From assembly GCA_964016885.1 (NCBI GenBank), contig OZ024741.1:213342001-213406000 (forward strand): 64,000 nt of DNA, given 5' to 3'. The notes beneath the pieces are model-generated. The model was not told the DNA's origin. It did no database searches and saw only the letters and a program-made list of their open reading frames with translations. How positions within the stretch are numbered: the first letter of the stretch is position 1; each line of letters opens with the position of its first letter. The stretch comes from Eledone cirrhosa (lineage: Eukaryota). This document shows, piece after piece, positions 7,861 through 63,729 of this stretch. The position numbers and the translations under genes were made by a program.

Positions 7861-8164
7861 ATTGATATTATACTCCAGAAGAAACTTGTAGAGTGTTTCT
7901 AATCTGTTATAAACTAAATTTGTTGAATAACCAATAAATTAAATAACTTATTGCTTATATATATATATTTCAATGACCGCGTTCAGTATGAATCCGGTGA
8001 CAACATCAGGTATTCCGAAATTTATCCAACAAAGGAATATAATAGACACAATACAAGGGGCTGAAAAGCAGAGAGAGATACCAAGACGAGAAGGCGGCAA
8101 AAAATTAACAGTTGCTAGTCCGGGTGGCCACCTTCCAGGAATTAAACCAGTCCAGCCTCCTGTT

Positions 8165-11075
8165 ATTTTATAATAATTAACTCCCATGCTAATCTGATCT
8201 CCTAGGTACCGGAATCTATCCACAACTTCTATAGCACCCAACTGCATTTGAAAAATGTGTCTATCAATGCGACTTCTACTGTCTAATTTCCCTGTATATC
8301 TACTGCATACGTATTTCTCCCTACCTGTTAGTTTGCCTGCTATCCCACTACATCTCTTGTGTACCCAGGATCTGCATTGTGTGCATTTTATAGAATCATG
8401 CAGGTTCCTTTTCTACATATCGAAAATGGCCATTTCCCTGACGGAATCAGAGTGTCGACCTCTTTTCTACTCATCAACACTTTTGTCTTAGCTAGGTTCA
8501 CTCTCAGTCCTCTTGCTTCCAACTGCTGTTTCCATAGCCAGAATTTATTCTCTAGCTCCTCTACTGATTCTGCTATAAGAACCAGATCGTCAGCATAGAG
8601 AATTTCCCATGGACAGCCAGTCTTAAACTCCTCTGTTATGGCTCGGAGGACTATAATGAACAAGAACTCCATCACTTGCTTACTGAGATATCACAAACGA
8701 CTTACCTATGCTGTGGGGTACATTCTTCCTCGGTATTTGACAGCATCTGCCTGTTCCGCTGCCTAACTAGTAAGAAGTCAATCTGGCATATGTGCTCGCC
8801 TGATTTGTAGGTTATTAGGTGGTTGGTAGGTTTCTGGAATTTCCCATGGACAGCCAGTCTTAAACTCCTCTGTTATGGCTTGGAGGACTATAATGAACAA
8901 GAGCGGGCTGAGGACCGAACCTTCATGTACTCTTACTTGTATCTGTAATTCCTCACTAAACTCCATTCCTACCCTGACTTTACTGACAGCACCTCTGTAC
9001 AAAGTTTGCAATATCCTCACAAGCCATTCTTCAACACCTAGTTTCCATAGGGACCACCAGATGACAGATCGGGGTACCCTATCAAAGGCCTTCTCTAGGT
9101 CAAAAAAGGCTAAGTATAGTGGCTTATTCTTTTCTAAGAACCTCTCTTCTAATTGTCTCACCAAGAAGAGGGCATCTGTTGTACTTTTCCCAGGCACAAA
9201 ACCGAACTGAATCTCATCTAGTTTGACCCTTTCCCTAATTAGTTGTGCTAATATCCTTTCTACCACTTTCATAACCTGATCCATCAGTTTCATACCCCTA
9301 TAATTGCTCCTCTCCAGAGCATTCCCTTTAACTTTGTAGCAATTTATGAGAATATTGCTGCACCAGTCTTTGGTTATGACACCACCATATTTAGCCTGAT
9401 TGATGATGCGTGCAACCAGTTTAGTGCCTACGTCCCCTTATGCCTTCAGCATTACAGCAACTATCCCCGATGGTCCAGCAGCCTTACCATTTTTCATTTC
9501 CTTAACCGCATTTTGGACACTATATTCGTCAATCTCAATAGCTGGTCCCTCTGTCGGATCTATTGAGGGTAATTTCTCTCTCTCCCATTCGTTCTCCACA
9601 TTCATCAGTCTCTCATAATGACATTTCCAGGCCTCCTTTTTCTGACCATTCGTGACACTAAATACACCGGCATCATTCCGGACACATTTATCTCCAACAA
9701 CATCCTGATTTGCATTGACACACTACCTTGCAATGTGAAACACCGCACGCCTCGGATCTTCCCGTCGCAGAACATTGGCAAACCTCCTTCTCTCAGCCTA
9801 CCTGCGTGCTAAGTACACCTGACGTCTATCTTCTCTCTTAGCGGCTGTATATCCTTCTCTACTCCCACCCTTTTCCCAAGCCTTCCATGCTAGTCTTTTG
9901 TCTCTAATGGCCTTATCTACTGTGCTGTTCCACCACCAGGTCACTGCCTGTCTGGTTGGAGCTCTGCTCCAGCCACAAGTTTCATCAGTAGCCTGCAGTA
10001 AGTTGTCACGTAAGAAATTCCAGTTATTATCTGTCATACGTCTCTAAATCGTCTTCTTTTTCGTCATACACTTCTTGAAGGGCTTTCCTAAATTTGTATT
10101 TTAGTGAAAGGTCTTTTAGCTTCAAGACCTTTCTTATCCACACCTCCCTGTATGACTCATTCCATCTCTTGCTTACTGAGATATCACTAACGACTTACCT
10201 ATGCTGTGGGTACATTCTTCCCCAGGGTATGCCTTGGTATTAGACACTATCTGCCTGTGCCGCTGCCTAACTAGTAAAACGTCAATCTGGCTTATGTGCT
10301 CGCCTGATTTGTAGGTTATTAGGTGGTTGGCAGGTTTCTGGAAGTTAGTGTTGCAAAGAGTCAGTGTACTTGCATCACAAAATTCAAGAAGTCTCACTCT
10401 TTCATCATTTCTTGAGCCGTAACTGTGCTCACCATGTACCCCAGTGTAACCATCCTGGAGCTGTCCAACATGACCATTGAAGTCCCCTGCTAGCATAATG
10501 ATGTCTCCGTCCTCTGTCATTGCGGCTGTTTGTAAAAGTTGCTCGTAAAAGCAGTCTTTCTCTTCTTTGCCTAGGCCTGCTTGGGGAGCATAGATAGCGA
10601 TGATTGTCAGTAGTCTCCTGCCTACAACTAATCTAGGCTTAATTATTCGATTATTAACTCGAACTTCCTCTATTGTCTTATTAATCCATCTCTCAGCCAG
10701 GAAAATGCCTACTCCCCCTAACCCATCATCCTTATCTACCCAGAAAAGCTTATAGCTAAGATGTTTGCCTGCGACTAGTCTTGCAGAGGCACCTCTCCAT
10801 CTCACCTCTTGCACGCAGCACACATCCACATGCCTTCTCTCCAGCATCTCCGCTATTTCAGCAGATCTACCTGTGAGAGTGCCAACATTAAGTGTTGCAA
10901 CTCTGAGATGCGACGTCTTCATATTTTTTTTGTTGTTGTTGTTCCTATATACTTGTTGCTGTGCTTGTAGTTGTTTTTGTATTGATACACTGGTTGGATG
11001 CCCTTCCTAACACGAGTGCCACTTTACAGCATGGACTGGGTGCTTTTATTCGTGCCACCAGCACTAGAGAGGATG
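8165..11075 (-). mobile_element. RTE-clade LINE, APE endonuclease + RT, frameshifted and internally rearranged
   Basis: ORF 10173-10922 has APE motifs (TLNVGTL, CVQEVRW, GDFNGHVG, QID); 8778-9293 and 8388-8675 have RT motifs (QFGF, DLEKAFD, GSVLSPLLF, YADD); FRYLG at about 8200. Confidence 0.93.
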
Positions 11076-12639: not shown

Positions 12640-13165
12640 CACCGCCAAGGAAGCACCAGAGATGTCGCAGCCCCAGCGCGTGTTTGCGTGCGCATTATCA
12701 CCCACGGCATGCCCAGCCCTCCAGGCAACAGGTGTTGACAGCAGATGGATCCTCTGACCTGGGAGTACGTCCCTTCCATAAAAAGCGGAAGAGGAGGCGC
12801 TTCATTTTTGTCAGAAATGGGCCGGGGCAAGGCACAACGGTTAGGCGGTAGCAGATGACGGTTGCGATGAACGCATTCGCCAACTCTGCCCGACCTTTCA
12901 GGGACAGCTTTCTCTCAGCCCATTTCTGGGTGAGAGAGGCCTCCCTGTTCGTCACCTCGCTCCAGTTTTTCTCCATCTGGAGGTCCGGACCGAACCAGAT
13001 CCCGAGCAATTTAACCGGTCCTTCCGTCCAGCGCCCCACGACGCTCTCGGGCGGCATGGACTTGCCTCTGCAGGTGCTGAGCTGCAAGCCCACTGACTTT
13101 TCCTGGTTTAACTTTGCTCCTGTCACTGCTTCATATTCCTTGAGAGCGTTGCCGAGCATCTGGAC
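12640..13165 (-). pseudogene. L1/Tx1-clade LINE ORF2 fragment (RT thumb region)
   Basis: GAKLNQEKS, KLLGIWF, LSLKGRA, FRFLWKG, GGLGMP. Confidence 0.85.
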
Positions 13166-13453
13166 ATTTCCGGCACGTGACCGGGCCGCTCTGATTATGC
13201 GCCTGTAGACTGAGGAGTGTAAAACTGAGAGAGGGTGCTTGCCCTGGTGGTAAAGGTGGACGTGGTCTTTTGTGTGCTTTTCGCCACCAGTGACACTCGG
13301 AATTGTCCCCCTTATTGCGGAATTTTTGAATTTTTTTTTATTTCTATCTTCTTGTTATAACCTTTATTATACGGCCAAATCCCACCCTGGAGAGAACTCG
13401 TCCATGGATCTCGGGAATTTTACCCGCCCTAGATAGATTTTTATGTGTATATT

Positions 13454-13518
<65 letters not shown>

Positions 13519-13571
13519 ATATATATATATATGTGTATATGTGTTTGTATATGTATGTATATATATATATA

Positions 13572-13628
13572 TGTAAGTATGTATGTATACGTACATACAT
13601 ATATGTATACAGACGTACAGTAGCATGC

Positions 13629-13659
<31 letters not shown>

Positions 13660-14087
13660 CAGGTACACATACATATATGTACGTATCAGTTTAGCGGACG
13701 CTTATTATAACGCCCGCTTTGTCGTTTGTAAACAAACTGACAGCCTGAATTTATGCCGTACGGTGTTAAGGCAACCACGTCACCGTTTTGTTCAACACTG
13801 ACACAGGAACGATGTACTAGTTTCAAGCTTGTTAGCTATCATCAGCACCGTATGCCCTTCTACCAGATGGTTGAACGTTCGAAAGTATATACTTTCCTTA
13901 TGAAAATTAACGGCTGAGCAGACTAATTTGCATATCGAGTGAGTTCAGTCGGCCAGGCGCACCCAAAAAGATAAGTTGTAATAAAATGAAAACGAAATTT
14001 CATTTCTCACTCTTAATACGGCACTTACTTAAATGTAAGTATGTATGTATACGTACATACATATATGTATACAGACGTACAGTAGCA

Positions 14088-14092
<5 letters not shown>
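13572..14092 (-). repeat. Family A HHR repeat, about 1.2 units
   Basis: Homologous to the unit at 21391-22953; starts and ends in (TA)n. Confidence 0.9.
13809..13851 (-). ncRNA. Type I hammerhead ribozyme (family A)
   Basis: acggtg CUGAUGA uagcu-aaca-agcuu GAAA cuag UA caucgu. Confidence 0.88.
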
Positions 14093-14166
<74 letters not shown>

Positions 14167-15510: not shown

Positions 15511-15731
15511 TATATATTTTACATTCATTTAAATTATTGATTTATTGATATTTTTTATCTGATTGTCCCGAATCTTCTGTTATCGATTTTTTATCGTGCG
15601 GTTGATTTTAGACTTGTTCTATGTGTGACGATAGTTATAGCTCTGAGTTATCTGAATTATTGAGCCCTCTGCCGCTCATTTCGAATTTTGTTTATCGTGA
15701 ACTCGTGCGCCGATTTTTCGATACTCGATCA

Positions 15732-15776
<45 letters not shown>

Positions 15777-15793
15777 ACAGACGTACAGTAGCA

Positions 15794-15869
<76 letters not shown>

Positions 15870-16119
15870 CTGGTACATACCTATTTGAATTGAAGGCCAT
15901 TTTGTAATAGGGGACAGGTAAGCGTAAAATTTAAAATTTAAATAGAGATTGCTCTGGAAAAATATATGGAATATTTCTGTAGCTTCCACAGCTTCTGTCA
16001 GAACATTTGCCCGGAGTTCAATCAACAAAAAGTTTGTTGTTGTATTTTGATCTTTCAAAATACGAAAATTACTAACACTTACCTCCTCTAAAAACAGTGT
16101 GTTGTCCTATCTATGAGCT

Positions 16120-16194
<75 letters not shown>

Positions 16195-16306
16195 GTAGAA
16201 AAGATAAGACACCTGAGAGAGAGACAGTTCGCCATCAGTCAAACAGGGAAAAAGCACCACATTAATGACAGGGAATAGCGAGAGTCTAGGCTCCGTTAAT
16301 TTATCG

Positions 16307-16362
<56 letters not shown>

Positions 16363-16593
16363 CGTTTCTGAATTTGTTTAGCAAGATTCTTTATCTGAAA
16401 TCGTGTGTTGAAACCGATATTGTTATACTTTGGGAGGTTCATGTTGCCAATAAGAAACACACGCACCAGTTGCTTTCACTTCAATTTATTATATATTTAT
16501 AAATTTATAAATTTACAAATTTACAAATCTACAAACTTATAAATTTCTGGTTGGTTGGTTGGTTCCACAACCAGATAGTTGTTTATATATATA

Positions 16594-16636
16594 GTCATAG
16601 TCCTTTCGTCACACACTCTGTGACCTCTTCAGTGAC
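16594..16636 (-). ncRNA. Minimal type I hammerhead (family B) in the PLE1 3' terminal repeat
   Basis: guca CUGAAGA g gucac-agagugu-gugac GAAA ggac UA ugac. Confidence 0.85.
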
Positions 16637-16871
16637 AGGGGATTCCTTTCTTCGTTTCTCTGCCTTTCCTTTCTTCTATCCTACGCCATTTTGTTTCTGT
16701 GTGTGTGTTGTGTGCTCAGTTTGCGCATGCGCCACATCCGGGTGTCTGTGTGTGTTTGTGTTCATTTTTCTATTTTTCTATTTATATTTTTTTTTCTATT
16801 TGTTTATTTATTTATTTATTTATTGTTGGTTGGTTGTTTGTTCTATGTGTGTGTGTGTTTTCATTTTGTCC

Positions 16872-19546
16872 TTAATTGTAAGTTGTGATGTTGCTGTTCC
16901 ACTCATATTTTCTATTTAATTTTGGTTTTAATTCTTTTATGCTTACTGCCTCTGTAATTTGCCTAAACATTGCATCTTTTCTGTGTGTGGATTCTATTTT
17001 TATTTCTATGCTCTCTAATCTACCCCTGTGTTCTATCTTAGCATGTTGGTAGAGCATAGATGATTCTTTATTATCTTGGAGGTCTCGCCAGTGTTCATTT
17101 ATTCGTTCCCCTATACTACGAGCTGTCTCACCTATGTACACTATATTTTTGTTTCTACATTGTCCTTCAGTACATCTTATGCTATACACTACATTTCTAG
17201 TTTTACAGTTAATATGGGGGCTTATTTTACAGGTTATACATTTCTTATCTATACATGAGGGTCTTTGGAACGGGTATGTCTTGCTAATAAGTGTTTTTAC
17301 GGAGGTACCAGGTCTTTCTACTATCTTAATATTGAGATTATGTTTATTTAGGGCCCTTCTAAATTTGTAGGCTAGTTCGCCTCTAGGGGTTGTATTGATG
17401 AACATTACACTCTGGTATTTATTGCTATCATACCATGAGTTTATTCTATTGGCCTTGTTCCTAGTTCTTTCTATTCTATTCCAAAATTTGCTCCTATACA
17501 AGGGGCAGGTCCCATTTATGTCATTATTTACCATTTTTTCCCATTTGGTTCTGGCTCCTTTATACACTCTGATTCTATCTCTCTGATTGTAGCCAGAGAA
17601 CTGCATACGGTGGATGAAGTGTTGTATGTGTCTCTCTAGTTCTTCGGGGTTGCACATGCGGGACACATTTCTCATACCCGTACCAAATCCGCAATCAGTA
17701 TGTTGATTTTGGTATGGTCCGAAATGGCCGAGATCCGGTGGATCAGATGTTTGGAAGTCATGGGTTTGGCATAATGGGAATGGAGGATTTGTTTTTGGTT
17801 GTTAATGGTATCTAACCAGAGCTCTGTGTCTAGTACAGGTAATCGATGGTTGGGGTGTCTACTTGGGTAGTCTATAGTAACTCTAATGCTCTGGTGGATG
17901 GAGTTTGCTATTTGCTGGATGCTTTCCATTGTGTTTTTCTCTAGTTCCTGACTGTTCTTTAGAGGGGGTGTCTTAACTACGATGTTTATATCATCTACGT
18001 AGCGGGAGTACATTATCAGGGTTAAGCTGTCTTCTAATTGTTCATTAAGTTTTTGTTTAAATCTACTGTCCCACCATACCATGAATAAGTTAGCTATGTC
18101 GCCTGCAATGCTAACACCAATGGCTGCTCCTTTCTCTTGGGCATATGTTTTACCATTAAATTTGAACATATGTTCCTTAAGGGTTAATTTTATGCTGGCC
18201 CCTACCGCATGTGCAATCATTTTCTTCAGTTCATCGTGGTTTTCGGGTGTCCGTATGGCTCTGGTCCACCCGTTCCATCTATCTGTGTGGGTTTTCTTGG
18301 CCATTGAGGTAATGGTAGGTGGTCTGCCTCTTGCTGGTCTTGTAGGGCACAGGTTGCTAAGGTCATAAGTGTCTAGGTAACTATTACTATGGGTAAGCCT
18401 AAGTAGAAGTCCCAGCTCACAGGTATCAATCCCACGGAACTCAACCTTGCTCTCGCTGATCATTTCTACGCATTTCTCCACAGCAAAATCCACGTCAATA
18501 GATGGATACAGGGACACAACATCCATACTGCCTATTATGCAGTTTGTTAGGTCCCCAGATCGGTTACCCGCGCCGATTCTGCTGAGGAGGTCCTCCGTGC
18601 TGTCACACACATCTGGGGACATCTCAATGATGGGGCGTATGATCAGGGAGAGGAAGTAGGACAGTCTGTAGTTACTAGCAATGTTAGCCCCACAGACTGG
18701 CCGTGTTGGTGGTCCCGCGACAGGGTCCCAGCCCGTTTTATCGTCTTTTCGAAGCCCATACAACGCCGGCACGTCATTGTTCCAGGCCTAGAAGTTGTTG
18801 GCAGTCCTTTTGTTGGGCTGCATTATATTCGTCCACATCACCATATGGGCATTGAGGGCTTTTTCTCTATCCTCATGCTCCTGTGTGGGTTGCATTGCCT
18901 GGATGTAGTTTGGCAGGCTGTCAACCGACATTCTGCCAGACTTGTCTGTTGGAAAACATGCTATCTCTCCATTACGCGAGCGCTGCATGAGCTTACGCAA
19001 GCCATTTGCAGATTCTTCTCCCAGTTGCTGGGCCTCTATTCTATTATGCTTCTTGCTATACTCTTCTATAATATTTCTAAGTTCGGATTTAGCTATACTA
19101 AATTGCGCTTCTGTTTGTTCATCGACCTGAGACGGCAACTGCGTGCGTTTGTTAAATGGCAAAGTCGTGGCGTGGACTCGTCGTAGGTCGAATGATTTAT
19201 CGGAGGGGTTATAAAACGGAGAGTTCCAGGCTGCTGCTTTATGTGTACTAGTGCTATTATTATTGTTAGTTGTGTTGTTTCTATTTCCACCAACAGCCTC
19301 AGCTTCATGGTTGTTTCTATGTCTCTCATAATTACTCCTGTCTCTTTCCACTGGCTCAATGTTGTTATCTACCCTATTTTGTGTGTCTGTGTGTTCGTCT
19401 TGGTTATTCTCTTTGTCCTTAGTCTCCCATCTCCTTTTCCTTTTAATCCTATTACTTTCTCTTATTTCTCTGATTTCTGTGCTACTGTCATTACTTGTTT
19501 TCTGTGTCTGTGTGTTTGTTAAGATTGTGGTGGTGGTGAGAGGCAT
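16872..19546 (-). pseudogene. PLE1 polyprotein (RT + C-terminal GIY-YIG); in-frame TAG at 18788 and frameshift at about 17675
   Basis: TDKSG, LYGLRK, SMDVVSLYPSI, QEKGAAIG, RYVDDI, LPVLD; CxxxxCxxC linker; NVVY..YIGETAR..RINEH..EA..PKLN. Confidence 0.92.
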
Positions 19547-19962
19547 TGAATGCGTGTGTGTTGTTGTTGTTGATGTGTGTTGTTGTTGATGTGTGTTGTT
19601 GTTGTCTCCGTGTGTGTGTGTGTGTTATCGTTGTTGTGTGTGTTGTTATTGTTGTTTGTGTCTGCGTGTCTGTTGTTGTTGTATCTGGGTATGTTGCTAT
19701 TGTTGTTGTTGTTGATGTGTGTGTTGTTGTTATTGTTGTCTCCGTGTGTGTTATCGTTGTTGTGTGTGTTGTTATTGTTGTTTGTGTCTGCGTGTCTGTT
19801 GTTGTTGTATCTGGGTATGTTGCTATTGTTGTTGTTGTTGTATTGTTGTTTGTGTCTGTGTGTCTGTTGTTGTTGGGATGTGTGTTGTATATGTGTGTGC
19901 GTATATTGTTGCTTTTGTTTTTGATGCTCCAGCGTAGTTTTGAAACGAAGAAAGGAATCCCC

Positions 19963-20007
19963 AGTCACTGAAGAGGTCACAGAGTGTGTGACGAAAGGAC
20001 TATGACT
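19963..20007 (+). ncRNA. Minimal type I hammerhead (family B) in the inverted 5' repeat
   Basis: aguca CUGAAGA g gucac..gugac GAAA ggac UA ugacu. Confidence 0.87.
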
Positions 20008-20237
20008 ATATATATAAACAACTATCTGGTTGTGGAACCAACCAACCAACCAGAAATTTATAAGTTTGTAGATTTGTAAATTTGTAAATTTATAAATTTA
20101 TAAATATATAATAAATTGAAGTGAAAGCAACTGGTGCGTGTGTTTCTTATTGGCAACATGACCCTCCCAAAGTATAACAATATCGGTTTCAACACACGAT
20201 TTCAGATAAAGAATCTTGCTAAACAAATTCAGAAACG

Positions 20238-20275
<38 letters not shown>

Positions 20276-20387
20276 CGATAAATTAACGGAGCCTAGACTC
20301 TCGCTATTCCCTGTCATTAATGTGGTGCTTTTTCCCTGTTTGACTGATGGCGAACTGTCTCTCTCTCAGGTGTCTTATCTTTTCTAC

Positions 20388-20466
<79 letters not shown>

Positions 20467-20849
20467 AGCTCATAGATAGGACAACACACTGTTTTTAGAG
20501 GAGGTAAGTTTTAGTAATTTTCGTATTTTGAAAGATCAAAATACAACAACAAACTTTTTGTTGATTGAACTCCGGGCAAATGTTCTGACAGAAGCTGTGG
20601 AAGCTACAGAAATATTCCATATATTTTTCCAGAGCAATCTCTATTTAAATTTTAAATTTTACGCTTACCTGTCCCCTATTACAAAATGGCCTTCAATTCA
20701 AATTTTAAAAAGAGAGGTGAAGGGACAAGTGAACTATGAACTTGTTACAGCTCACTGCCCCCCCCCCCCTCCGGCACCACAATAACGTCTACACTCGCTA
20801 GCAATAATGATAGCCTTTCCGTGGGAATTAGAAGGAACCGCGACATAAA

Positions 20850-21245
20850 TTGCAACTGCCGCGATAGCGGACGCGGGCCCCCTTAGAGGATACTGCTTGA
20901 CTGATAGGTTATAAATAGGTGCACTGTAACTAGCCACAATAGCGTTAAACATTATATAGGGGCTACCTCTGGTCCGTTCAAAATAAGATTTCGAACACAT
21001 CTCCACTCTTTCACAAATAAGAAATTAACGCACTCCACTTCGCTCGCGGACTACATCACATCATTAAAAAACTTAAACCTTAGCTTCTCCACGCACTGGG
21101 ATATTGTCGGCAGGGCTGCACCGTACAACTTCGGGAGGAGGTGCGATCTTTGCCTCATGGAGCTCTACCACATCATAAGAGCACCCCACGAGCAGTGGTG
21201 AAGCGACGATAAGCTGTACACATCGCTTAAAAATATCCTTCTTCA
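20850..21245 (+). pseudogene. GIY-YIG C-terminal fragment of a third PLE (absent from the ORF track)
   Basis: Hand translation CNCRD..VINRC..HYIGATSGPFKIRFRTHLHSF..STSLADYI..WDIV..CDLCLME..CTHR parallels ORF 48079-48564 and its continuation. Confidence 0.85.
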
Positions 21246-21390
21246 GATGTGATAAGGATGAGGAGTGAAACCGTATACCGAGTCTCCCTGCAACAAGTTT
21301 TAATACCCCGACGAGCAGGCGCTGCAAAAAACATCCGGAAACTAACCATACATCCCAGACCCACCTTCAAATGACCCAGGCGGGCAGGTG

Positions 21391-22953
21391 CAGCGTTCCT
21401 TTGTCAGGGTTGAACAAATGAGCAACGATGGTTGCTAGACACTGTACGGCTTAATTCGTGATGTTTGTTTACCGAGCATTATAATAAATATTCGGTGAAT
21501 CCATACGTACATATATATATGTGTGCATGTATATATATATATATACATACTACTGTACGTCTGTATACATATATGTATGTACGTATACATACTTATATTT
21601 AAGTAACAGCCGTACTAAGAGTGAGAAATGAAATTTCGTTTCATTTTTTCCGTTTATCGTTTTCGGTACCCCGGCCGATTAACTCACTCGATATGCAAAT
21701 TAGGCTGCTCATCCGTTAATATGCATAAGGAAAGTATATACTTTCAGACGTTCAATCATCTGGCAGGAAGGTATACGTTGCTGACGATAGCTAATAATCT
21801 TGAAACTAGTACAGCGTTCCTTTGTCAGTGTTGAACAAATGAGCAACGATGGTTGCTAGACACTGTACGGCTTAATTCGGGATGTTTGTTTACAAACACA
21901 CCGAGCATTATAATAAATGTTCGGTGAATCCATACGTACATATATATATGTGTGCATGTATGTATATATATATATACATACTACTGTACGTCTGTATACA
22001 TATATGTATGTACGTATACATACTTATATTTAAGTAACAGCCATACAAAGAATGGGAAATGAAATTTCGTTTCATTTTTTTCGTTTACCGCTTTCGGTAC
22101 CCCGGCCGATTAACTCACTCGATATGCAAATTAGGCTGCTCATCCGTTAATATGCATAAGGAAAGTATCTACTTTCAGACGTTCAATCATCTGGCAGGAA
22201 GGTATACGTTGCTGACGATAGCTAATAAGCTTGAAACTAGTACAGCGTTCCTTTGTCAGTGTTGAACAAATGAGCAACGATGGTTACTAGACACTGTAGG
22301 GCTTAATTCGGGATGTTTGTTTACATACACACATAGCATTATAATAAATATTTGGTGAATCCATACGTGCATATATATATATGTGTGCATGTATGTATAT
22401 ATATATATACCTACTACTTTACGTCTGTATACATATATGTATGTACGTATACATTATTATATTTAAGTAACAGCCGTACTAAGAGTGGGAAATGAAATTT
22501 CGTTTCATTTTTTCCGTTTATCGTTTTCGGTACCCCGGCTGATTAACTCACTCGATATGCAAATTAGGCTGCTCAGCCGTTAATATGCATAAGGAAAGTA
22601 TATACTTTCAGACGTTCAGTCATCTGGCAGAAAGGTATACGTTGCTGACGATAGCTAATAAGCTTGAAACTAGTACATCGTTCCTTTGTCAGGGTTGAAC
22701 AAATGAGCAACGATGGTTGCTAGACACTGTACGGCTTAATTCGGGATGTTTGTTTACAAACACACCGAGCATTATAATAAATGTTCGGTGAATCCATACG
22801 TACATATATATATATATGTGTGCATGTATGTATATATATATACATACTACTGTACGTCTGTATACATATATGTATGTACGTATACATACGTATATTTAAG
22901 TAACAGCCGTACTAAGAGTGAGAAATGAAATTTCGTTTCATTTTTTCCGTTTA
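21391..22953 (+). repeat. Family A tandem array (3.6 units of ~431 bp), HHRs at 21775-21817, 22206-22248 and 22639-22681
   Basis: CTGACGA at 21781, 22212 and 22645 (periods 431, 433), each acgttg CUGACGA uagcu-aaua-agcuu GAAA cuag UA cagcgu or a near variant. Confidence 0.93.
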
Positions 22954-23664
22954 TATTAATATATATTCTATTAGAATTGACCTAGAGCTAATAATATAAC
23001 CTTTATACTCATTTCTGTGACGTGTTAAAATTACCAACAGTCACATAAGGAAAGACAACTATATGCTATATAACACTCTATCTATTTCCACCATCAATTA
23101 GAGACTATATTTCTGTCATTCTACATGTCAGCTGAAGGAATACCAAAATAAGTCATCTTTGTCTATATTAGCAAATTTTATTTTCTACTTCTTTTAATAT
23201 ATTCTTCATTTTATTTTTATTTATTTATTTTATTATGTATTTGTTTATTTATTTTTTCCTTTCTCAGTTATTGATCTTCGGCCGTCATATCTACCTTCCA
23301 TTCCACTCTTTCTCTCACATGTTGTTAGTCTATTAACTTCATCTCAGAAAGTATACTAGAATTTTTATTTTTGGTCGACCCCGCAGCGGTAAAGCTGACC
23401 TGTGGAAAATTTTGATTAATGTATAAAGAGCTTAGAATTAGAGTTATAGTTTTAAGTTTGCTGTTCCATGCCTGCACACGAGTTTGACGAATTTCGGATA
23501 TTATCTTGGTTCTATGGACATTAAGTGACTGGGTGTACAAATCTTCCCCCTTCCGACCTCTTGATGGTATTTAAGTTCATTACAGGGTGATTTCGTATTT
23601 TTCTAAAACTTAGTTTCGATAAACGTGTTCTCCGGTGGTATTAGATCTCATACTAAAATATACC

Positions 23665-24305
23665 TAAGTCTAGGGCGGGTAAAATTCCCGATATCCATGG
23701 ATGAGTTTTCTCCAGCGGTCTCTGTCCTTCATTAACGCTGCCATGTCCTGCGTCTCCAAGAGACCAGTGTCTGTCCTTAGGGCATCAACATATGTTAACC
23801 TCGGTTTTCCTCTTCCAGTGTGTCCATGCAGGGGCTCCCACAGGAGCACTGAGTGCAGTGTCAACTCTGGATGTCGGTGAGCATGTCCAGCTAACCTCAG
23901 TCTCCTCTGTGCTATTCTCGAGCTGACCTTTGGTAGAGAATATTAAGAAGCCAGAGAAGATTACTAATGTAGGGGGGAAGACGTTAGAATTGTTTGAGGA
24001 CTTCCTGTATTTGGGAGCAAAGATTGGGAATACGGAAGATGATGTGGTCGAGAGGAAGAGCAAAGCCTGGGCGGCGTGCCACAGCTTGAGATCGATGTGG
24101 AAGTCGGACCTTCGTAAAGACCTGAAGATCCGTCTCTTCGTTGCTACAGTGGAGTTTGTGTTACTGTACGGGTCTGAGACTAGGACACTGACCAAGAAAC
24201 TCACCCAGATGGTGGATGGGTGCTACACGAGAATGCTGAGGATGGCTTTGAACATTAATCAGTATACACTGAGGATGAAGAGCTCAGAGCTGTACGGCAA
24301 CCTCC
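23665..24305. mobile_element. RTE-type LINE 3' part with a 5' inversion
   Basis: + strand FLYLG..LLYGSET..YGNL; - strand from 23936 LPKVSSRIAQRRLRLAGH..GRGKPR..W. Confidence 0.85.
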
Positions 24306-24782
24306 AAAAATACCTATATATCTACCAAAATATACCACTCCACTGACCTGAAGATTGTAACGAACCCCAACTTTTTCTTTCGTTTTAACGTTTCTGATAC
24401 CATCCTAGTCAAAACTTCTCCTTTTAACCTGCGAAATAAAGACAACCATTTTAAAGGTTTATTACTTAAATTAAAGGGTGGTAAATTTGCAAAGAGCGGT
24501 GGATTGTCAGTATCGGTAGAGGGTCGGACACCATGCTTTGCAGCAAACAGTTACGGTCTTTTATGGCCAGAGTAATATAGAAACAATTATTTAGATTAAA
24601 TTCAACCGGAATTTGTTTCCTCTATAGAACTATTTTACCCTCTTTTCTAAATTATTATTTATAGCAATCGACTGTAGTTACAGATATTTTCTGCGTTTGA
24701 GATTTGTACATTTTCTAAGAATTTAAATTAAAATCGCTTGATATAATTGTATATAAAACGCATAATGTTATGTTTAATACCA

Positions 24783-26054: not shown

Positions 26055-26113
26055 GCTGCCTGATGAGGTCATAGCTGTTGAATAATGATTATCACCGAAA
26101 TATATATTACAGT
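26055..26113 (+). ncRNA. HHR-like motif (family H)
   Basis: gcugc CUGAUGA ggu..acc GAAA uauaua UU acagu; first stem I pair mismatched. Confidence 0.55.
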
Positions 26114-27196: not shown

Positions 27197-29042
<1,846 letters not shown>

Positions 29043-43785: not shown

Positions 43786-44120
43786 AGATGGCGTAGACAT
43801 ACAATACAACATAATAGGGACATAATAGCACCACTGATGATGTTGCAAATGTGCAACGAAAGAACTTTGTTAGACTATATATATGTGTTTACATCAATAT
43901 TATATCTGTATTTTTGACCGTTGGTCAGTCAATGATAAACATTGAGGACGAAATGAATTAACTGTGGAGATATAAAAGATACAGAAGCGAAAACCAACCA
44001 AACAGTGAGTGTATTTTGTTATTAATTCTGGCAATATTATTACAACAATATGACCCTCCTCAAATATAACAATATTTCTTTCTACACACGATTTCATATC
44101 AAAAACCTCGCAAAACAAAT
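43786..44120 (+). mobile_element. Solo PLE terminal repeat (family B') with HHR at 43832-43869
   Basis: CUGAUGA u guugca-aaug-ugcaac GAAA gaac UU; stem I weak. Confidence 0.72.
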
Positions 44121-47106: not shown

Positions 47107-49355
47107 TAAAAAGTATGACCCCGACGGCAGAGCTCCAGCCGTTTCGACGGCTATTTCTGGACTAAATTAGAATTTTTAGCCTGGTGAATAAATCGCTGAA
47201 CTTTTCAAGGGGGTACTTCCTTATATGGGAAGATTGTAGTTGTGAAGAGGATTGGTTAAAATTTGTTGTAAACACAAATAAGTCTATCATGGCATTTGGT
47301 GGGAGGTAGGGGTGGCTGAACTTGCCTGTAGAACAATAGGGGTGTGAGTGGTGCGGTCAAGCGTTGAAAGTGATATGTATACAGCAGATTCTAAGTGTAT
47401 GAAGTGGGAGAGGGAGGTTATAGAATAGGTAAATCGAATGAGAGTAGGAGACAATAAAAGATAATAGAAATAAATAAAAATATATATAAAATTAGATAGT
47501 GAGAAATGAATAAAAATAAATCACAATGCTATCTTACAATTACAGGTTAATAAGTTGAGAATAGAAAACACTTGTAGTAAAAACTTGTAGTACCAGAACT
47601 GATAGAGAATTAAAGGGGTTTAACACGTCTGCTATAAGTAGTTAGTAAAACGTATTATGCCTATTCTATCTTTAAATTAAAGGGGTGGGGGAACTGATGC
47701 TACAGAAGCCCAATGGGCTGCATCAGGGTAGGCGAAGAGGAAAAGCAGTGGAGGAAGAAAATAGGGGGTGGAAGGAAGTGATAGGATGAGATAGGGGGAG
47801 GAAGAAGACAAAGAGGAAAAGAAAAGGAAAGAGATACATCTACCTAAGTAAGCTGAGGTTTCCCATAACTTATTCCGCAAGTAGGGAGTCTCAGCCTTTG
47901 TCTACCCACCCGGGTCGTTATGGGGTTTGAGGGCGAGGTAAGTCCTACGCAATCTGTGTTTGCATGCGGTTACCAGTTCCTCTTTCTTGTTTAGGAGTTG
48001 GTCCTTCGAAAACAGCATTTGTAATGTTTCCTCCGAGCATAAGTTACACGGACGGCGTCCTCCCGTGTAAGAGTTAGCTTAGGACAGTAAGCTCCAAGTG
48101 AGATTGTAAGTTATATTATTATCTTGGAGGTCCCAGATGTGGCCCGAAAGTGTAGTGGCATATCGCCGGGCCGGCTTTCGGAAAGTATGTCGGTGTTGGT
48201 AGAGCCGGGTCTTGAAGTCACACGCGGTTAATCCTATATAAGCTTTGTTGGAGGTATCCGTCCTCACGTTGCACTGGTAGATGACGTTACGTTCTCGGCA
48301 TTTGTTGTTGAGGGGGCACGTAGATCTATCAGGGCAGTTAGACCTCCTGGTCGGCTCTCCACTGATGTCTAGGTTATTTCTTCCATAGAGGTTGAGTTTT
48401 TTGATGTTTGAGGAGACGACGTTTTGTGCGAAGTTAGGTGTGGCTCTGTAGGAGAGTTTGATGGTGTTTTTGTTGATTATGTTGTGGTAGCGGTGTTGTA
48501 GTGGGAAGTGTTTTTCGAGGAGTCTAAAGAAGATTTTTCCCGATAGGTGTTGCCATCCCGGCATTATGGGGAGGATTGAACCACGTTACGTTGCGTGAGC
48601 GGCGGTGTCGCCTGCTGGTTACGCTAAGGGAAGCTGGATACAAGGATATTTCCTCCCGGAAGCCACTCCGATTGAGGGCCTGGTTGTAATGTGGCGCGTG
48701 TTCGTCGAATATCTGCTCATTAGCGGACAAACGAGATATGCGGAGGGAGATGTTTTTAACCAGGTTATTGGTGATGTTTCTAGGATGGTTAGAGCGGCGG
48801 TGGATGGAGTGAAGGTTGTCGTTTGGTTTCCTGTATGGGTAGTACAGATCATTTTCGAGGTTACGGGTAACGTCCAGGAAATTTACTCGGGTTAGGGACG
48901 TTTGTAGGGTGATTTTATATCCCCAGTCCCGGAAGAAGTTGATTAGTTGTTTACGGACCCGGTCTGTACTACTGAGGTTGTACCCTTTGAGGGTGGGGAG
49001 CAGATCATCCCAGTACAATCCACCGCCGAATGCAGGAAATATTTCGGTGAGTTTAAATAGTAGGAATAATCCTATAAGATCAGTGACCTCGGCCGAATCC
49101 GTCGCGCCCATACTGACGTCGAAGGGGGAGTCGGGAGCTCTCTTTATCCACTTAGAGTTGTCGAAAAGTAGGACTGTCTTCCTGGCGTGGAGAATGACAT
49201 TTCTTTCCTGCTCAGTGATGGGTGTGAGTGTTTCGGCAAATTCCAAGGCGGCCGTCGGGGTCATACTTTTTCCCATTTCCCACTCTACTGCCCTAAGTAT
49301 TGAGTACTCTGGTGCGTTATGGTCCATCTGGTTCCTTACCACAATTCCTTTGTTA
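47107..49355 (-). mobile_element. 5'-truncated Penelope-like element PLE2 with an inverted terminal repeat at its 5' end
   Basis: FDVSMGATDSAEV, GLYWDDL, VNFLDV, SNHP, WFNPP, NVIY..YIG..R..H, CNLC, CKHR; gccgtcggggtcatactttt at 49250 is inverted at 47110-47130. Confidence 0.92.
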
Positions 49356-49482
49356 TATATATATATTCGCCTGCGCTTGTATATAGAGGGTGAACCAAAA
49401 AATGTATACACACATTGATTACTTGTACAGGCTATATTTATTAGAATGCAGTTGAAGTGTGTATACATTTTTGGGGGACACC

Positions 49483-49565
<83 letters not shown>

Positions 49566-49572
<7 letters not shown>

Positions 49573-50792
49573 AATTTATATCTAGTAACATTTATATACA
49601 CAGATGCATATCAATGCTAGCAAATATATAGGTTTTATCTTATTAACATTGTGGTTCAATGCATGGGGTTGCAGAACAATAATATGAGAGACGTAAAATA
49701 AGAAAATTATAAATTTAACTTACTTACTAAAAAATCACTTCCAACTAATTAGTTTCTTGTATGGAGTAAATATATTTTCCGAAGAAACATATAGAAAATC
49801 ATTCCGTCATCAGGAAAGTCTTTTTCCGTGTAAGTCTCCAGGCATAGCGAGGACTCTGGAAACTTATTAAAAAGATAATTCAGTGGAAAGGAAATAGCGA
49901 AGCGAGGACTGGATTCCTAGCCATTGAGAAAGTCACTGCCTCTTCGTCTGTGGCAAATTCAAAAAGAATCAATCACGTGACATCGAGGTCAATCAGTGGA
50001 AAGCGAATGGTTAATAAGACAGCGGCCAGCCTACTACCATAGTAGCAGTCATGGCCAAATATTGCTCGACAAATGAATTGGAGATAATTATAAGGAATTT
50101 ATATCTAGTAACATTTATATACACACAGATGCATATCAATGCTAGCAAATATATAGGTTTTGTCTTATTAACATTGTGGTTCAATGCATGGGGTTGCAGA
50201 ACAATAATATGAGAGACGTAAAATAAGAAAATTATAAAATTAACTTACTTACTAAAAAATCACTTCCAACTAATTAGTTTCTGGAATGGAGTAAATATAT
50301 TTTCCGAAGAAACATATGGAAAATCATTCCGTCATCAGGAAAGTCTTTTTACGTGTAAGTCTCCAGGCATAGCGAGGACTCTGGAAACTTATTAAAAAAA
50401 TAATTCAGTGGAAAGGAAATAGCGAAGCGAGGACTGGATTCCTAGCCATTGAGAAAGTCCGCTGTCTTATTAACCATTCGCTTTCCACTGATTGACCTCG
50501 ATGTCACGTGATTGATTCTTTTTGAATTTGCCACAGACGAAGAGGCAGTGACTTTCTCAATGGCTAGGAATCCAGTCCTCGCTTCGCTATTTCCTTTCCA
50601 CTGAATTATTTTTTTAATAAGTTTCCAGAGTCCTCGCTATGCCTGGAGACTTACGCGGAAAAAGACTTTCCTGATAACGGAATGATTTTCTGTATGTTTC
50701 CTCCGAAAATATATTTACTCCATTCCAGAAACTAATTAGTTGGAAGTGATTTTTTAGTAAGTAAGTTAAATTTATAATTTTCTTATTTTACG

Positions 50793-50800: not shown

Positions 50801-50872
<72 letters not shown>

Positions 50873-50875
<3 letters not shown>

Positions 50876-50989
50876 TTGAAAAAAATGAAAACGAAATTTC
50901 ATTTCTCACTCTTAGTATGGCACTTACTTAAACGTAAGTATGTATGTATACGTACATATACATATGTATACAGACGTACAGTAGCACGC

Positions 50990-51066
<77 letters not shown>

Positions 51067-51933
51067 TACACATATGCATACAGGTACACATACATATATG
51101 CACGCATCAGTTTAGCCAACGTTTATTATAACGCCGGCCGCTTTGTTCGTTTGTTTGTCAACAAAGCGAACAGCCTGAATTTATGCCATACGGTGTTAAG
51201 GCAACCACGTCACCTTTTTGTTCAACACTGACACAGGAACGATGTACTAGTTTCAAGCTTGTTAGCTATCATCAGCACCGTTTACCCATTTGCATATTGA
51301 GTGAGTTAAATCGGTCAGGCATACCGAAAACGATAAGTTGAAAAAAATGAAAACGAAATTTCATTTCTCACTCTTAGTATGACACTTACTTAAACGTAAG
51401 TATGTATGTATACGTACATACACATATGTATACAGACGTACAGTAGCACGCATATATATATACATATATATATACATATATACACATATGCATACAGGTA
51501 CACATACATATATGCACGCATCAGTTTAGCCGACGTTTATTATAACGCCGGCCGCTTTGTTCGTTTGTTTGTCAACAAAGCGAACATCCTGAATTTATGC
51601 CATACGGTGTTAAGGCAACCACGTCACCTTTTTGTTCAACACTGACACAGGAACGATGTACTAGTTTCAAGCTTGTTAGCTATCATCATCACCGTTTACC
51701 CATCTGCCAGATAGTTGAACGTTCGAAAGTATATACTTTCCTTATGAAAATTAACGGCTGAGCAGCCTAATTTGCATATTGAGTGAGTTAAATCGGTCAG
51801 GCATACCGAAAACGATAAGTTGAAAAAAATGAAAACGAAATTTCATTTCTCACTCTTAGTATGGCACTTACTTAAACGTAAGTATGTATGTATACGTACA
51901 TACACATATGTATACAGACGTACAGTAGCACGC

Positions 51934-51968
<35 letters not shown>

Positions 51969-52392
51969 CATATATACACATATGCATACAGGTACACATA
52001 CATATATGCACGTATCAGTTTAGCCGACGTTTTTTTTCAACTCATCGTTTTCGGTATGCCTGACCGATTTAACTCACTCAATATGCAAATTAGGCTGCTC
52101 AGCCGTTAATTTTCATATGGAAAGTATATACTTACGAACGTTCAACTATCTGGCAGATGGGTAAACGGTGCTGATGATAGCTAACAAGCTTGAAACTAGT
52201 ACATCGTTCCTGTGTCAGTGTTGAACAAAAAGGTGACGTGGTTGCCTTAACACCGTATGGCATAAATTCAGGCTGTTCGCTTTGTTGACAAACAAACGAA
52301 CAAAGCGGCCGGCGTTATAATAAACGTCGGCTAAACTGATGCGTGCATATATGTATGTGTACCTGTATGCATATGTGTATATATGTATATAT

Positions 52393-52424
<32 letters not shown>

Positions 52425-52488
52425 GTATATATATATGCGTGCTACTGTACGTCTGTATACATATGTGTATGTACGTATACATACATAC
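50873..52488. repeat. Family A array: about 2.5 units (-) then 1 inverted unit (+); HHRs at 51239-51281, 51653-51695 (AUGAUGA) and 52165-52207
   Basis: Homology to the other arrays; strand switch at about 52030. Confidence 0.92.
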
Positions 52489-52489
52489 C

Positions 52490-52565
<76 letters not shown>

Positions 52566-60566: not shown

Positions 60567-61601
60567 GAGAGAGGGATGGTAAGAGAGAAATAGAGAGAGC
60601 GCAAAGAAACAAATGGTTGAAGCTTATCATCAAATTGTTTTATTCAGTAAAATCCACTTCAATAGATATATGATGCAGGTATACATAAGACGACATATCT
60701 TGCTATAACCTAGTTTTAATATAAAGCCGTTAGGAAACAAGAAGCTCGTTTTACCACTTTACACCTCTCACACGCAGTCACCTTCTTCAATCTATCGGAT
60801 AAAATATGCACATTATTGCCATGCTGCAACACCAAATCGCCATTTTAAGGAAAGCATCGAGGGAACTAATTGCTATTAGTGACAAAAATATATAAGATAC
60901 TGGAATAATTGTAGCTCCAATCTTCAGTGACATAGTAATTCTAGTGTGTGCATGTACGTGTGTTCATATATGTGTGTGTATATATGTGTGTGTATATGTG
61001 TATATGCATGGATGCATGTGTATGTATATGCGCGGGGACATAGAAATAGTCGGGCTGTAAACCCGATCGCGCAGTTAAACCACTGGGAGTGAAGCGCCCC
61101 TAGCCTTTCTCAGGTCATTCTTCTCGGAGAAGGCAACTCAGGAAACTGGGATAACTCCGATATAAAACCTGTGGCTCAGTAGTTACCGATGGTGTTGATC
61201 TTTTCTTCTTTTTGGGTTATAGCTATTGTCGTTCAGAGAGTGGGATTGGCTCAGTGCACAGTCTTTCCTCACTTTAAAAAATATCTTCACGCACAGGCAT
61301 TGCACGATAGAATTAATTAATTATTATTAATAATGGTATATCATGCAATGGGCATACTCGATAACGAGGGGGCAGCCATCATATGTATATATATATATAT
61401 ATATATATATTTATCCTTTGAGCCCTCTTTGGATTTTAGTCTTCGCATTTACTATTATTATTATTACTATATATATACATATGTGTATGTAAGTATATAT
61501 ATATGTGTATGTATGCAAATGGTAAACAGAAATAACGACACAATCGGTACAGTATATGGAAGGGATATATTAGGTTAACGCTTGATATAGCAGGAAGAGG
61601 G

Positions 61602-61637
61602 TCTTAACGTTTCGGACGCTAGTCCTTCATCAGAAGA
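61602..61637 (-). ncRNA. Minimal type I hammerhead (family F)
   Basis: ucuu CUGAUGA a gga-cuagcg-ucc GAAA cg UU aaga. Confidence 0.75.
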
Positions 61638-62049: not shown

Positions 62050-63427
62050 TTAGGGTGTTCCATAATCCCACATTTTACACAAAAGTGTTTTTTTTTCTTA
62101 GATCTCTATGCATTTTCTCATGCCATTTTGTATAGTATGCTTTATAATGTAATTGTGATTATTTCAGAGTAATTTAAGCCTTGCCTAATAGTTGCAAATT
62201 GGCAGAATAATGGCAGAAACCATTGGGCCTAGTTGTAGCTACTCGCTCCGTTGTGATGATCGAGAAATATGGCTCCTGGGGCAATATGTTACATCCTTTT
62301 CACCAAACAAAATACCCATAAAGAGGGATGTTCTAAGATATTTCTTCAACCTGAAAGATGGTCCTATGAAACAGGAAAAGCATGTGAGCTTCAATGGTGC
62401 TATTGCGGATAGACTTGTGATGGAAGTAGTTAGTCAGTGGGAAAAAGTTTGGTGGTGCGACTCAACGAAAAGACAAAGTGAAACTGAAAATTATGAACAT
62501 GTACAGTGAATACAGAAATTTACAAAAAAACAAAGGTTCTAAGTCAAACAAAGAAAAGGAAGCACTATTTATTTCTGAATTGGATTCGTATTTCTACATT
62601 GCAAATACTGATGCTGAAAAGAAAATTTTGAAAGACCGTCTTCGTAATAATGAACAGAAAATGGAAGATGCTGCATTTCTCGAGACCCTGCGTTACCAGA
62701 CAAAAGTATCTCTGGGTGCTGAAGACAAGGTTTACCAGAAAAAGGTATCTTCAAAGTTTAAGCGTGATCAGGTTTCTGTGGCTCGTCGAGAGTCAGAGAA
62801 CCATAGAGAGAGTTTGTCAGGATCTGTAGCAGCACAACTTCCACGTAATGAACTGAGTGATTCAAGTTCAACCAATGATGAAACTGAAGATGAACAGGAT
62901 CCTGAATTTCAGGCCTCAAACCCACCCAGAGACAGCTCAAAGTCAGACAAAAAACGAAAAATCGAGCTGGAACTCCCAAAGAATCCATTTCAAAGTCCAA
63001 ATATTTCTCTAATGGCTGATCGTTTAAACCTGACACTGGGCCAGAGAACAGTATTTATAGCATCGATTATTTCTGAGGGTGGGACTGACATAGACGCCAC
63101 AACTCTCTCCAAGAATAGTAGCAGACGTGCAGCTAAGAAGATCAGAACTGTGGGGGCTGAACACATAGAAGGAACAATTTGCTGTACCAGACTTTGTTAC
63201 CTTACATTGGGATGGAAAAATAATTCCTGGTGACCCATATAGGCTATGTGTGCGAGCTGCTGGAACTCCGGACTTCAGAGAAGGTAAAATCCTCGGTGTT
63301 CCCATAATTTCTGATGGCACTGGAACCACCCAAGCCAAAGTATCATTTGATCTTGTTAAAGATTGGAATGTTGATGGGTCTGTGGTGGGTTTGGTCTTCG
63401 ACACAACTGCTTCGAATCTGGATGGAA
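62050..63427 (+). mobile_element. DNA transposon with a frameshifted, 3'-truncated DDE transposase, probably hAT superfamily (hATm-like)
   Basis: Starts TTAGGGTGTTCC; frames give LHWDGK, ILGVP..GTG and FDTTASN; cut off at (TA)n. Confidence 0.72.
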
Positions 63428-63729
63428 ATATATATATACATATACATATATATATGTATATATTGAAAGAGAGAAGAATAACATGGTCAACAGTACAAAA
63501 GAGGGTTTTGTTTACAGTATTAACAATTGTTAATATATATGTGTATATATATATATATGTATATATATGTATATATGTATATATATAATGGTATTAGAAT
63601 CAAATAGTATGGTAGAATATTAAATGTTAAGTGTTAATTGAACAAGTACTTTCATGCTTTCGCAATCTTCAGGTTCATATTGTGTGGTGACAGTCAAGTT
63701 TACAATTTTCAACTATATATAGATGTATG

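Follow-up and report, generated by a model that had tools for sequence, protein, structure and literature searches.

A non-coding tandem hammerhead ribozyme repeat in Eledone cirrhosa with the insertion footprint of a Penelope-type retroelement

Non-LTR retrozymes of metazoans have been defined as tandem non-coding units of the 150- to 450-bp class with a GC content below 50%, each with one canonical type I hammerhead ribozyme (HHR) and a short palindromic stem III; they reach thousands of copies and co-occur with Penelope-like elements (PLEs), and newt satellite 2 and the schistosome repeats, as cited there, belong with them (Cervera & de la Pena 2020, PMC7229834). These retrozymes have been seen as linear and circular RNAs, the circular form in coral, mussel, and axolotl; PLEs were proposed as candidate mobilizers (PMC7229834), a hypothesis restated in PMC7761336. 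Vertebrate retrozymes likewise occur as monomers, dimers, and multimers alongside PLEs, and their proposed dependence on PLEs was argued from co-distribution and pLTR homology; in Xenopus, cleavage was found in only one of nine dimers tested (Li, Clavereau & Pollet 2026, bioRxiv 10.64898/2026.07.22.740005). PLEs leave partial tandems, inverted truncated arms, and a tail at one end in (TA)n targets (Craig et al. 2021, PMC8557442). In vitro, reverse transcriptase (RT) starts at two internal sites whose separation defines the PLE tail, both target strands are cut and extended, and insertion did not require HHR cleavage (Frangieh et al. 2024, PMC11167929).

We analyzed a window of 64,000 nucleotides (C2:213342001-213406000 of a 3.0-Gb genome) in which an earlier note had described a non-coding tandem repeat of ~431 bp with one HHR per unit, here called family A (Table 1). 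That description was borne out: Tandem Repeats Finder placed the array at 21391-22954 (period 433, 3.6 copies, 93% matches), its complete units measure 421, 431, and 433 bp, and frames in a doubled unit reach at most 75 codons from stop to stop and 68 when counted from an ATG. GC content is 35 to 36%. The predicted GUA cleavage triplets do end at 21811, 22242, and 22675, and the ten HHR copies reported on both strands were all recovered (13.8k, three in the array, 27.5k, 28.0k, 28.7k, 51.2k, 51.7k, and 52.2k); nine carry CUGANGA with N = C, U, or A, and the tenth reads AUGAUGA. In these genomic features family A fits the non-LTR retrozymes of PMC7229834. The right flank of the array does not continue the PLE fragment on its left, and inspection of the flanks revealed no target-site duplication. 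Nor is an LTR/PBS/PPT layout apparent: among 120 arms, no terminal repeats were seen, and the arrays end inside a unit. Contigs assembled from four sequencing runs over 21995-22355 contain the repeat, and some break off at 22087, where their loose ends lead into (TA)n.

Table 1. Location of family A, its ribozymes, and related elements in the window (positions counted from its first letter) and elsewhere in the genome
Feature	Location	Strand	Remarks
Family A array	21391..22953	+	Terminal partial unit ends at the "long" 3' end
Family A unit 1	21391-21811 (421 bp)	+	Numbering starts at cleavage site
Family A unit 2	21812-22242 (431 bp)	+	Numbering starts at cleavage site
Family A unit 3	22243-22675 (433 bp)	+	Numbering starts at cleavage site
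Family A partial unit 4	22676-22953 (276 bp)	+	Closes at the "long" end
Extended type I hammerhead 1	21760..21828	+	Core 21781-21811; predicted cleavage after 21811
Extended type I hammerhead 2	22191..22259	+	Core 22212-22242; GUA
Extended type I hammerhead 3	22624..22692	+	Core 22645-22675
Long AT-rich hairpin, one per unit (unit 2 given)	21930..22018	+	3' strand stops just before the short 3' end
"Short" insertion end, putative RT start site 1 (unit 2 given)	22025..22032	+	Unit position ~214-221; UAUA register
~60-nt tail to the "long" insertion end	22891..22953	+	Hairpin 22913-22953; unit position ~276; UAU register
Conserved hairpin with ATGCAAAT, downstream of the long end	22123..22158	+	Common to families A and B
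ATGCAAAT octamer-like motif	22124-22131, 21693-21700, 22557-22564	+	
Older PLE endonuclease/3' fragment, unrelated	20879..21390	+	Left flank of array; meets it via CA(G) microhomology
Family A2 arm, one HHR	13568..14160	-	Core 13815-13845; short end
Family A2 inverted insertion	27261..28404	.	HHRs 27519-27549 and 28004-28034 both in minus arm; none in plus arm
Family A arm, one HHR	28420..28771	-	HHR 28639-28669; short end
Family A2 tail-out inverted insertion	50871..52497	.	Long end on minus arm, which has two HHRs (one reading AUGAUGA); short end on plus arm, which has a single HHR
Neptune-type PLE copy, interrupted; candidate mobilizer family	16351..20240	-	RT, CX4CXXC linker, C-terminal GIY-YIG; own HHR 16597-16632, inverted HHR 19968-20003; 60-nt tail into (TA)n
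Intact Neptune-type PLE frames	L121 (G000:C6:65214500-65224400), L122		
Satellite-like family A arrays	G000:C1:51769001-51789000; C2:315394001-315412000; C3:72261001-72270500		13 to at least 39 units
Sister family B loci	L131:120-755; L165:1110-1975; G000:C1:5738327-5752443		
Zero-divergence family B lineage	G000:C1:30.83 Mb, C18:30.95 Mb, C1:322.55 Mb, C6:54.09 Mb, C744, C410, C1:85.31 Mb		

Only the second of the three array hammerheads is clean: its 6-bp proximal stem I is followed by an internal loop and a distal stem I, its stem II consists of a U·U plus 4 bp with an AAUA loop, and its stem III is a 2-bp palindrome. The first has one stem II mismatch, and the third carries a U·U in stem I. 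With its long stem I and internal loop the ribozyme is a canonical type I HHR, fitting the "canonical" metazoan form described in PMC4209133 rather than the minimal PLE type. The core (C3 U4 G5 A6 N7 G8 A9, G12 A13 A14, A15.1-U16.1, and H17) is complete in nine of the ten window copies. The Rfam comparison that the earlier note proposed did return Hammerhead_HH9 in a 151-base local scan, but at 19.7 bits (E = 0.0086), under the gathering threshold of 52; among the 150 of 284 rows listed from a whole-window scan there was no hammerhead, only TA-repeat miRNA artifacts. Rfam hammerhead models expect a longer stem III than families A and B possess.

To assess conservation, we used 110 locus-haplotypes drawn from the 142 ungapped copies among 145 full copies. 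Pairing was scored on 72 of the 80 haplotypes that were distinct: 95.6% of stem cells were paired, compared with 33 to 48% in slid registers, and none of 500 shuffles reached 95.6%. The stem I pair −34/+3 was G·U in 51 locus-haplotypes, U·G in 44, A-U in 10, U·U in 3, and C-G and G-C in 1 each, and changes on both sides were found in only 2 of 22 pairs, each probably reflecting one or two events. H17 was A in 91 and U in 19 of the 110. Lineage-level polymorphism affected 0 of 11 core positions, 2 of 31 core-plus-stem positions, and 77 of 327 elsewhere (Fisher p = 0.024), in a sample biased by the choice of many loci through core patterns. In a genome search free of this bias, with ten core bases left free, all ten were kept in 23,763 of 26,373 copies (90%), and since core loss amounts to ~1% per site, no large core-dead lineage has spread. 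Folding z-scores of single HHR copies were not significant (−0.05 to −0.75). As judged from variation among the copies, the hammerhead structure has been kept under selection. Its weak point is position 10.1-11.1, which is U·U in 91 and C·A in 19 of the 110 locus-haplotypes and never Watson-Crick, a difference from the metazoan retrozymes of PMC7229834; U·U is described as a natural variant and the best-tolerated mispair (PMC3088659), and either mispair would lower activity. Outside the ribozyme, the 3' strand of the AT-rich hairpin is also poorly polymorphic (1 of 42 positions in the anchored region).

Genome-wide copy number, which the earlier note had proposed to determine, came to 24,749 exact matches of a 31-base core pattern, compared with 0 for the reversed pattern, so that chance is excluded as their origin; an older subfamily adds a further 1,054 core matches. 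Family A has been copied ~25,000 times into TA microsatellites.

The ends of these insertions were mapped in the first-listed matches on contig C1 together with the window (82 sequences, 167 cleavage-site copies), comprising 120 arms, 93 with one cleavage site and 27 with two to seven. The short site followed by (TA)n closed 54 arms, a class that is lenient because the region is itself TA-rich, and the long site followed by (TA)n closed 43; five arms stopped at either site without TA, and 18 had other ends. The two fixed 3' ends lie ~60 nt apart, the long one at unit position ~276 marking a probable second RT start site, and 5' ends are scattered. A hairpin precedes each start site, and the UAU(A) register matches the (TA)n target. 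Among 29 tail-out inverted pairs, 19 joined a long to a short end, none joined two long ends, one joined a short to a tail-truncated end, and nine had an unclassified arm. Long plus short hence accounts for 19 of 20 classifiable pairs (one insertion seems to have been counted twice, as a duplicate, among the 19), and random pairing would give 19 discordant pairs with a chance of roughly 0.49^19. In all 26 pairs that could be measured, the two arms differed less from one another than from the median other locus, and in 12 they were as close as to the best other locus. With 3' ends that are fixed and 5' ends that vary, a (TA)n target, and long-plus-short pairs, these insertions bear the footprint of target-primed reverse transcription (TPRT). 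The reinsertion by a PLE RT that the earlier note had put forward gains support from the two fixed ends, the tail, the target, and the inverted pairs, with the enzyme itself deduced. Neptune-clade PLEs and PAc Poseidon share with family A the partial tandems, inverted 5'-truncated arms, one-end tail, (TA)n or AT-rich targets, and two internal RT start sites (PMC8557442, PMC11167929); family A differs in having no open reading frame (ORF), a canonical rather than minimal HHR, a longer tail (~60 nt, and 68 nt in its sister family B, versus 30 to 40), and strict one-long-one-short pairing, whereas in vitro the strands were not seen to differ in their start sites (PMC11167929).

Autonomous PLEs co-occur with family A in this genome. 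The Neptune-type copy in the window was assigned by the motif definition of PMC8557442, in which Nematis has the same linker; its RVT_1 and GIY-YIG domains score under the Pfam cut-offs, and the CX4CXXC linker was located in a 1,281-aa frame. Intact frames of 1,280 to 1,281 codons exist elsewhere in the genome, as do 4,276-bp head-to-tail tandems, and identity among the best 150 of 38,925 endonuclease candidates is 98 to 100%, which marks the family as young. Its arms (n = 33; short 18, long 11, unassigned 4) use two sites 60 nt apart in (TA)n, and four of five two-arm loci are long plus short, the fifth being long plus long with duplicated flanks. Since it matches family A in having two such ends, in the length of its tail, and in its target, we infer, by footprint only, that this family is the partner of family A. 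Between family A and the 3' regions of two Neptune families there was no sequence homology beyond TA runs, and recognition would be structural, through the hairpin and the UAU(A) register at each start site. Here family A, with footprint identity and no pLTR homology to these two families, departs from the vertebrate retrozymes, for which pLTR homology was reported (bioRxiv 10.64898/2026.07.22.740005). It departs likewise from the Chlamys MRC1-type elements, which are also non-autonomous PLE passengers inserted as multicopy head-to-tail arrays into microsatellites but have 3' sequence in common with autonomous families and mostly lack a canonical HHR (PMC8557442). The intact frames (L121, L122) begin within the pLTR/tail and include a large N-terminal low-complexity Asn/Thr/His insert. 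The window copy as a whole (15729-20785) is long plus long with both flanks duplicated, which suggests a later rearrangement. The second Neptune-type family (L050:24-1260, L059, L123, L104, L162) is ~57% identical in the endonuclease region and has its own HHR, found also at window 43834-43882, and a 59- to 60-nt tail into (TA)n.

The ends also bear on the template. A 5' end lay within 3 nt of the cleavage site in only 1 of 120 arms, all 158 cleavage-site junctions were free of indels, and the post-cleavage anchor is about as frequent genome-wide as the core region (26,289 versus 26,373 copies); these three observations exclude the cleaved linear monomer as the main template. Reverse transcription crosses the cleavage site, the template being a circle or an uncleaved multimer. 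The single arm that starts at the cleavage site is the window array itself, and we rejected this start as proof of cleavage in vivo, given its rarity and the CA(G) microhomology at the junction. Of the cycle that the earlier note had described, in which self-cleaved monomers circularize and are reinserted, the tandem type I HHR retroelement and its PLE mobilization are supported. On balance we lean slightly toward an RNA circle as the family A template. A circular monomer is predicted to fold at −132 kcal/mol, compared with −93 ± 6 for 25 shuffles, in part owing to the AT-rich hairpin; this favors a circle, as do the low divergence of units within loci, the homogeneous arms, and the long run of identical units in one insertion of the sister family, all described below.

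Divergence between full units is 1.1% when they come from one locus (48 pairs) and 11.3% when they come from different loci (898 pairs, all subfamilies). Among 22 multi-unit arms, 12 were homogeneous (≤1.5%) and 10 heterogeneous (2.3 to 7.5%), and in only 6 were units closer within the arm than to the nearest unit elsewhere. Long arrays, taken as the best 40 of 5,080 candidates by similarity to the window array, reach at least 39 units and show periods of 2, 3, 4, 6, and 8 as well as mosaic units. DNA-level array expansion occurs in family A. The heterogeneous arms, higher-order periods, mosaic units, and a 4-nt insertion common to three of five adjacent units argue against a circle as the sole source of units. 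Period-2 and period-3 arrays (ABABA at L062; A-B-C-A' in the window array, whose units 1 and 4 are both near one common haplotype) were rejected as proof of multimeric circles because long arrays show periods of 2 to 8. Inspection across 67 polymorphic sites gave no haplotype switching at the cleavage site, as ligation of different monomers would produce, and singletons showed no general A-to-G excess from RNA editing (15 A>G versus 19 T>C).

A sister family, B, aligns end to end with family A, has units of 466 to 470 bp, and is represented by 9,448 exact cores genome-wide. Its stems I and II differ from those of family A yet are fully paired around the same core, with G-C at 10.1-11.1, and it scores 38.9 bits against HH9 (gathering, 52). 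All seven of its pairs are long plus short. Family B arrays reach 31 units with an inverted arm, and one insertion has arms of 13 and 7 HHRs with 18 units identical. A variant in those 18 units proved not to be private to the locus, since it belongs to a lineage of 70 copies at seven places; these copies differ only by indels in homopolymers, a single deletion, and a single chimeric unit, and their octamer-like motif carries three clustered A-to-G changes within the hairpin. An edited founder RNA is a possible source of these changes. By its zero divergence the lineage would reflect very recent activity, or else a polished assembly; it is no proof of a circle. The ATGCAAAT hairpin common to both families is a candidate RNA element or snRNA-type octamer, and a newt satellite 2 octamer precedent is mentioned at second hand in PMC2220036. 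A role as an essential snRNA-type promoter octamer is weakened by loss of the motif in the youngest lineage, where the hairpin is kept.

Several accounts of family A have to be weighed. Ordinary satellite or minisatellite DNA, spread at the DNA level with the hammerhead as an inert relic, would accord with the real DNA-level expansion and with a core decay of ~1% per site per copy, like that of neutral DNA; it is opposed by the TPRT footprint, with its 3' ends fixed, its 5' ends scattered, its (TA)n targets, and its long-plus-short inverted pairs, and by stems compensated across subfamilies and in family B, and we consider it very improbable, the end analysis having already largely refuted it. 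A SINE-like passenger of a LINE strikes us as just as hard to credit. RTE-type copies are present in the window, LINE RT/endonuclease fragments lie at 8.8 to 11.0 kb, and any TPRT yields fixed 3' and variable 5' ends, but two-site internal priming, the tail, and tail-out inverted pairs are a PLE signature matched by the Neptune-type family, and, short of an alignment, no 3' end common with the LINE was noticed. Descent is a finer question. Family A might be an internal-deletion derivative of an autonomous PLE parent with a homologous pLTR, recognized by sequence rather than by structural mimicry: its unit has the layout of a PLE circular permutation (HHR, short end, tail, [ORF], HHR) minus the ORF, 24 of 57 Xenopus retrozyme families match transposable element termini, nearly all of PLEs (bioRxiv 10.64898/2026.07.22.740005), and our comparison covered the best 150 of the 38,925 Neptune endonuclease candidates. 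Such a homologous parent was not found in the two Neptune families, which have unrelated pLTRs and minimal-type HHRs; across 101 sequences totaling 513 kb, the linker upstream of the family A ribozyme was nowhere replaced by a PLE frame, and searches for relatives with an ACUAGU stem III returned only the non-coding family B or scattered matches. We regard this derivation as unlikely.

A closer competitor keeps the same PLE mobilization and changes the template to a linear multimer that stays uncleaved after transcription of long arrays, which DNA-level unequal exchange would replenish; the HHR would be kept for another purpose, such as late cleavage or freeing transcripts from read-through RNA, with circles as a by-product. 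Two consecutive divergent units were never found in the same order at two loci (0 cases), the sampled long family A arrays are heterogeneous whereas many young insertions are homogeneous, and arms of up to 18 identical units occur in both orientations, all of which weighs against it, together with the array start at the cleavage site, which only one of the 120 arms shows and which 2 to 3 nt of microhomology blur. We view the linear-multimer template as a real possibility, if on the whole a doubtful one.

Family A is probably a non-autonomous, non-coding Penelope-type retroelement (a non-LTR retrozyme) mobilized by a PLE. In the cycle we favor, tandem units would be transcribed, and the type I hammerhead would cut at GUA, with the ACUAGU palindrome probably letting it act as a dimer; by homology with related systems, monomers and sometimes multimers would then be ligated into circles. 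An RT-endonuclease, presumably of the Neptune-type PLE, would cut both strands of (TA)n DNA, as the footprint shows, and prime internally at two sites ~60 nt apart, just 3' of the hairpins, one per strand. Each cDNA would cross the intact ribozyme junction in the 5' direction, covering anything from part of a unit to many units before a random stop, and two cDNAs joined by their 5' ends would give a tail-out inverted insertion with one long and one short end; both features are evident in the arms. Expansion, recombination, and decay then follow at the DNA level and are seen in the arrays themselves. A fuller version, which we advance tentatively and with some doubt, holds that a Neptune-type PLE dimer recognizes a non-homologous, ribozyme-made circle of ~430 to 470 nt by structure alone, primes it in staggered fashion with one subunit per start site and strand, and rolls around it to produce two inverted arms in which as many as 18 units are identical, in a system still active and rebuildable in vitro from the 1,281-codon frame. 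Activity at present is suggested by the zero-divergence family B lineage, and the three A-to-G changes of its founder fit an edited template.

The element class and the cycle of the earlier note are already published, the latter in PMC7229834 and bioRxiv 10.64898/2026.07.22.740005, and family A is a further non-LTR retrozyme. Literature searches yielded no description of family A, of which a prior annotation may exist, and no end-mapping evidence for retrozyme mobilization. What appears new is an unusually clean genomic end-mapping of PLE-driven insertion and the one-long-one-short rule, which constrains the PLE mechanism. The footprint ties mobilization of family A to PLE machinery, as PMC7229834 proposes, and together with that of the Neptune-type PLE it supports, from genomic sequence, the published hypothesis on how retrozymes move. 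Two questions in the literature are touched, namely which enzyme moves animal retrozymes and what role the hammerhead has in the PLE cycle. From the ends of tens of thousands of insertions in this genome, RT start sites can be read at single-base resolution; together with the pairing rule, a candidate partner that has intact frames, and an extremely young sister lineage, this makes it straightforward to reconstitute the system directly from PLE protein, (TA)n DNA, and retrozyme RNA in circular or linear form.

Other elements in the window include a PLE of a different clade at 48079-49591 (minus strand), with tandem HHRs 525 bp apart upstream; it is interrupted by a small palindromic, TA-flanked insert that recurs in many loci. 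Further hammerhead families were noted at 26060, 46842, 59017, 49761-49813, 50285-50338, 61589-61633, and 63629-63672 and at loci L068 (a ~310-bp tandem) and L048; they include a PLE-type ribozyme with a long stem II and several with U·U closing stem II. LINE-type RT/endonuclease fragments lie at 7948-11006 (minus strand), 12698-13354 (minus strand), and 23927-24346 (plus strand), with RVT_1 and Exo_endo_phos in two of them. At 62430-63588 (plus strand), ORF fragments resemble a DNA transposase, the first of them having no informative Pfam match.
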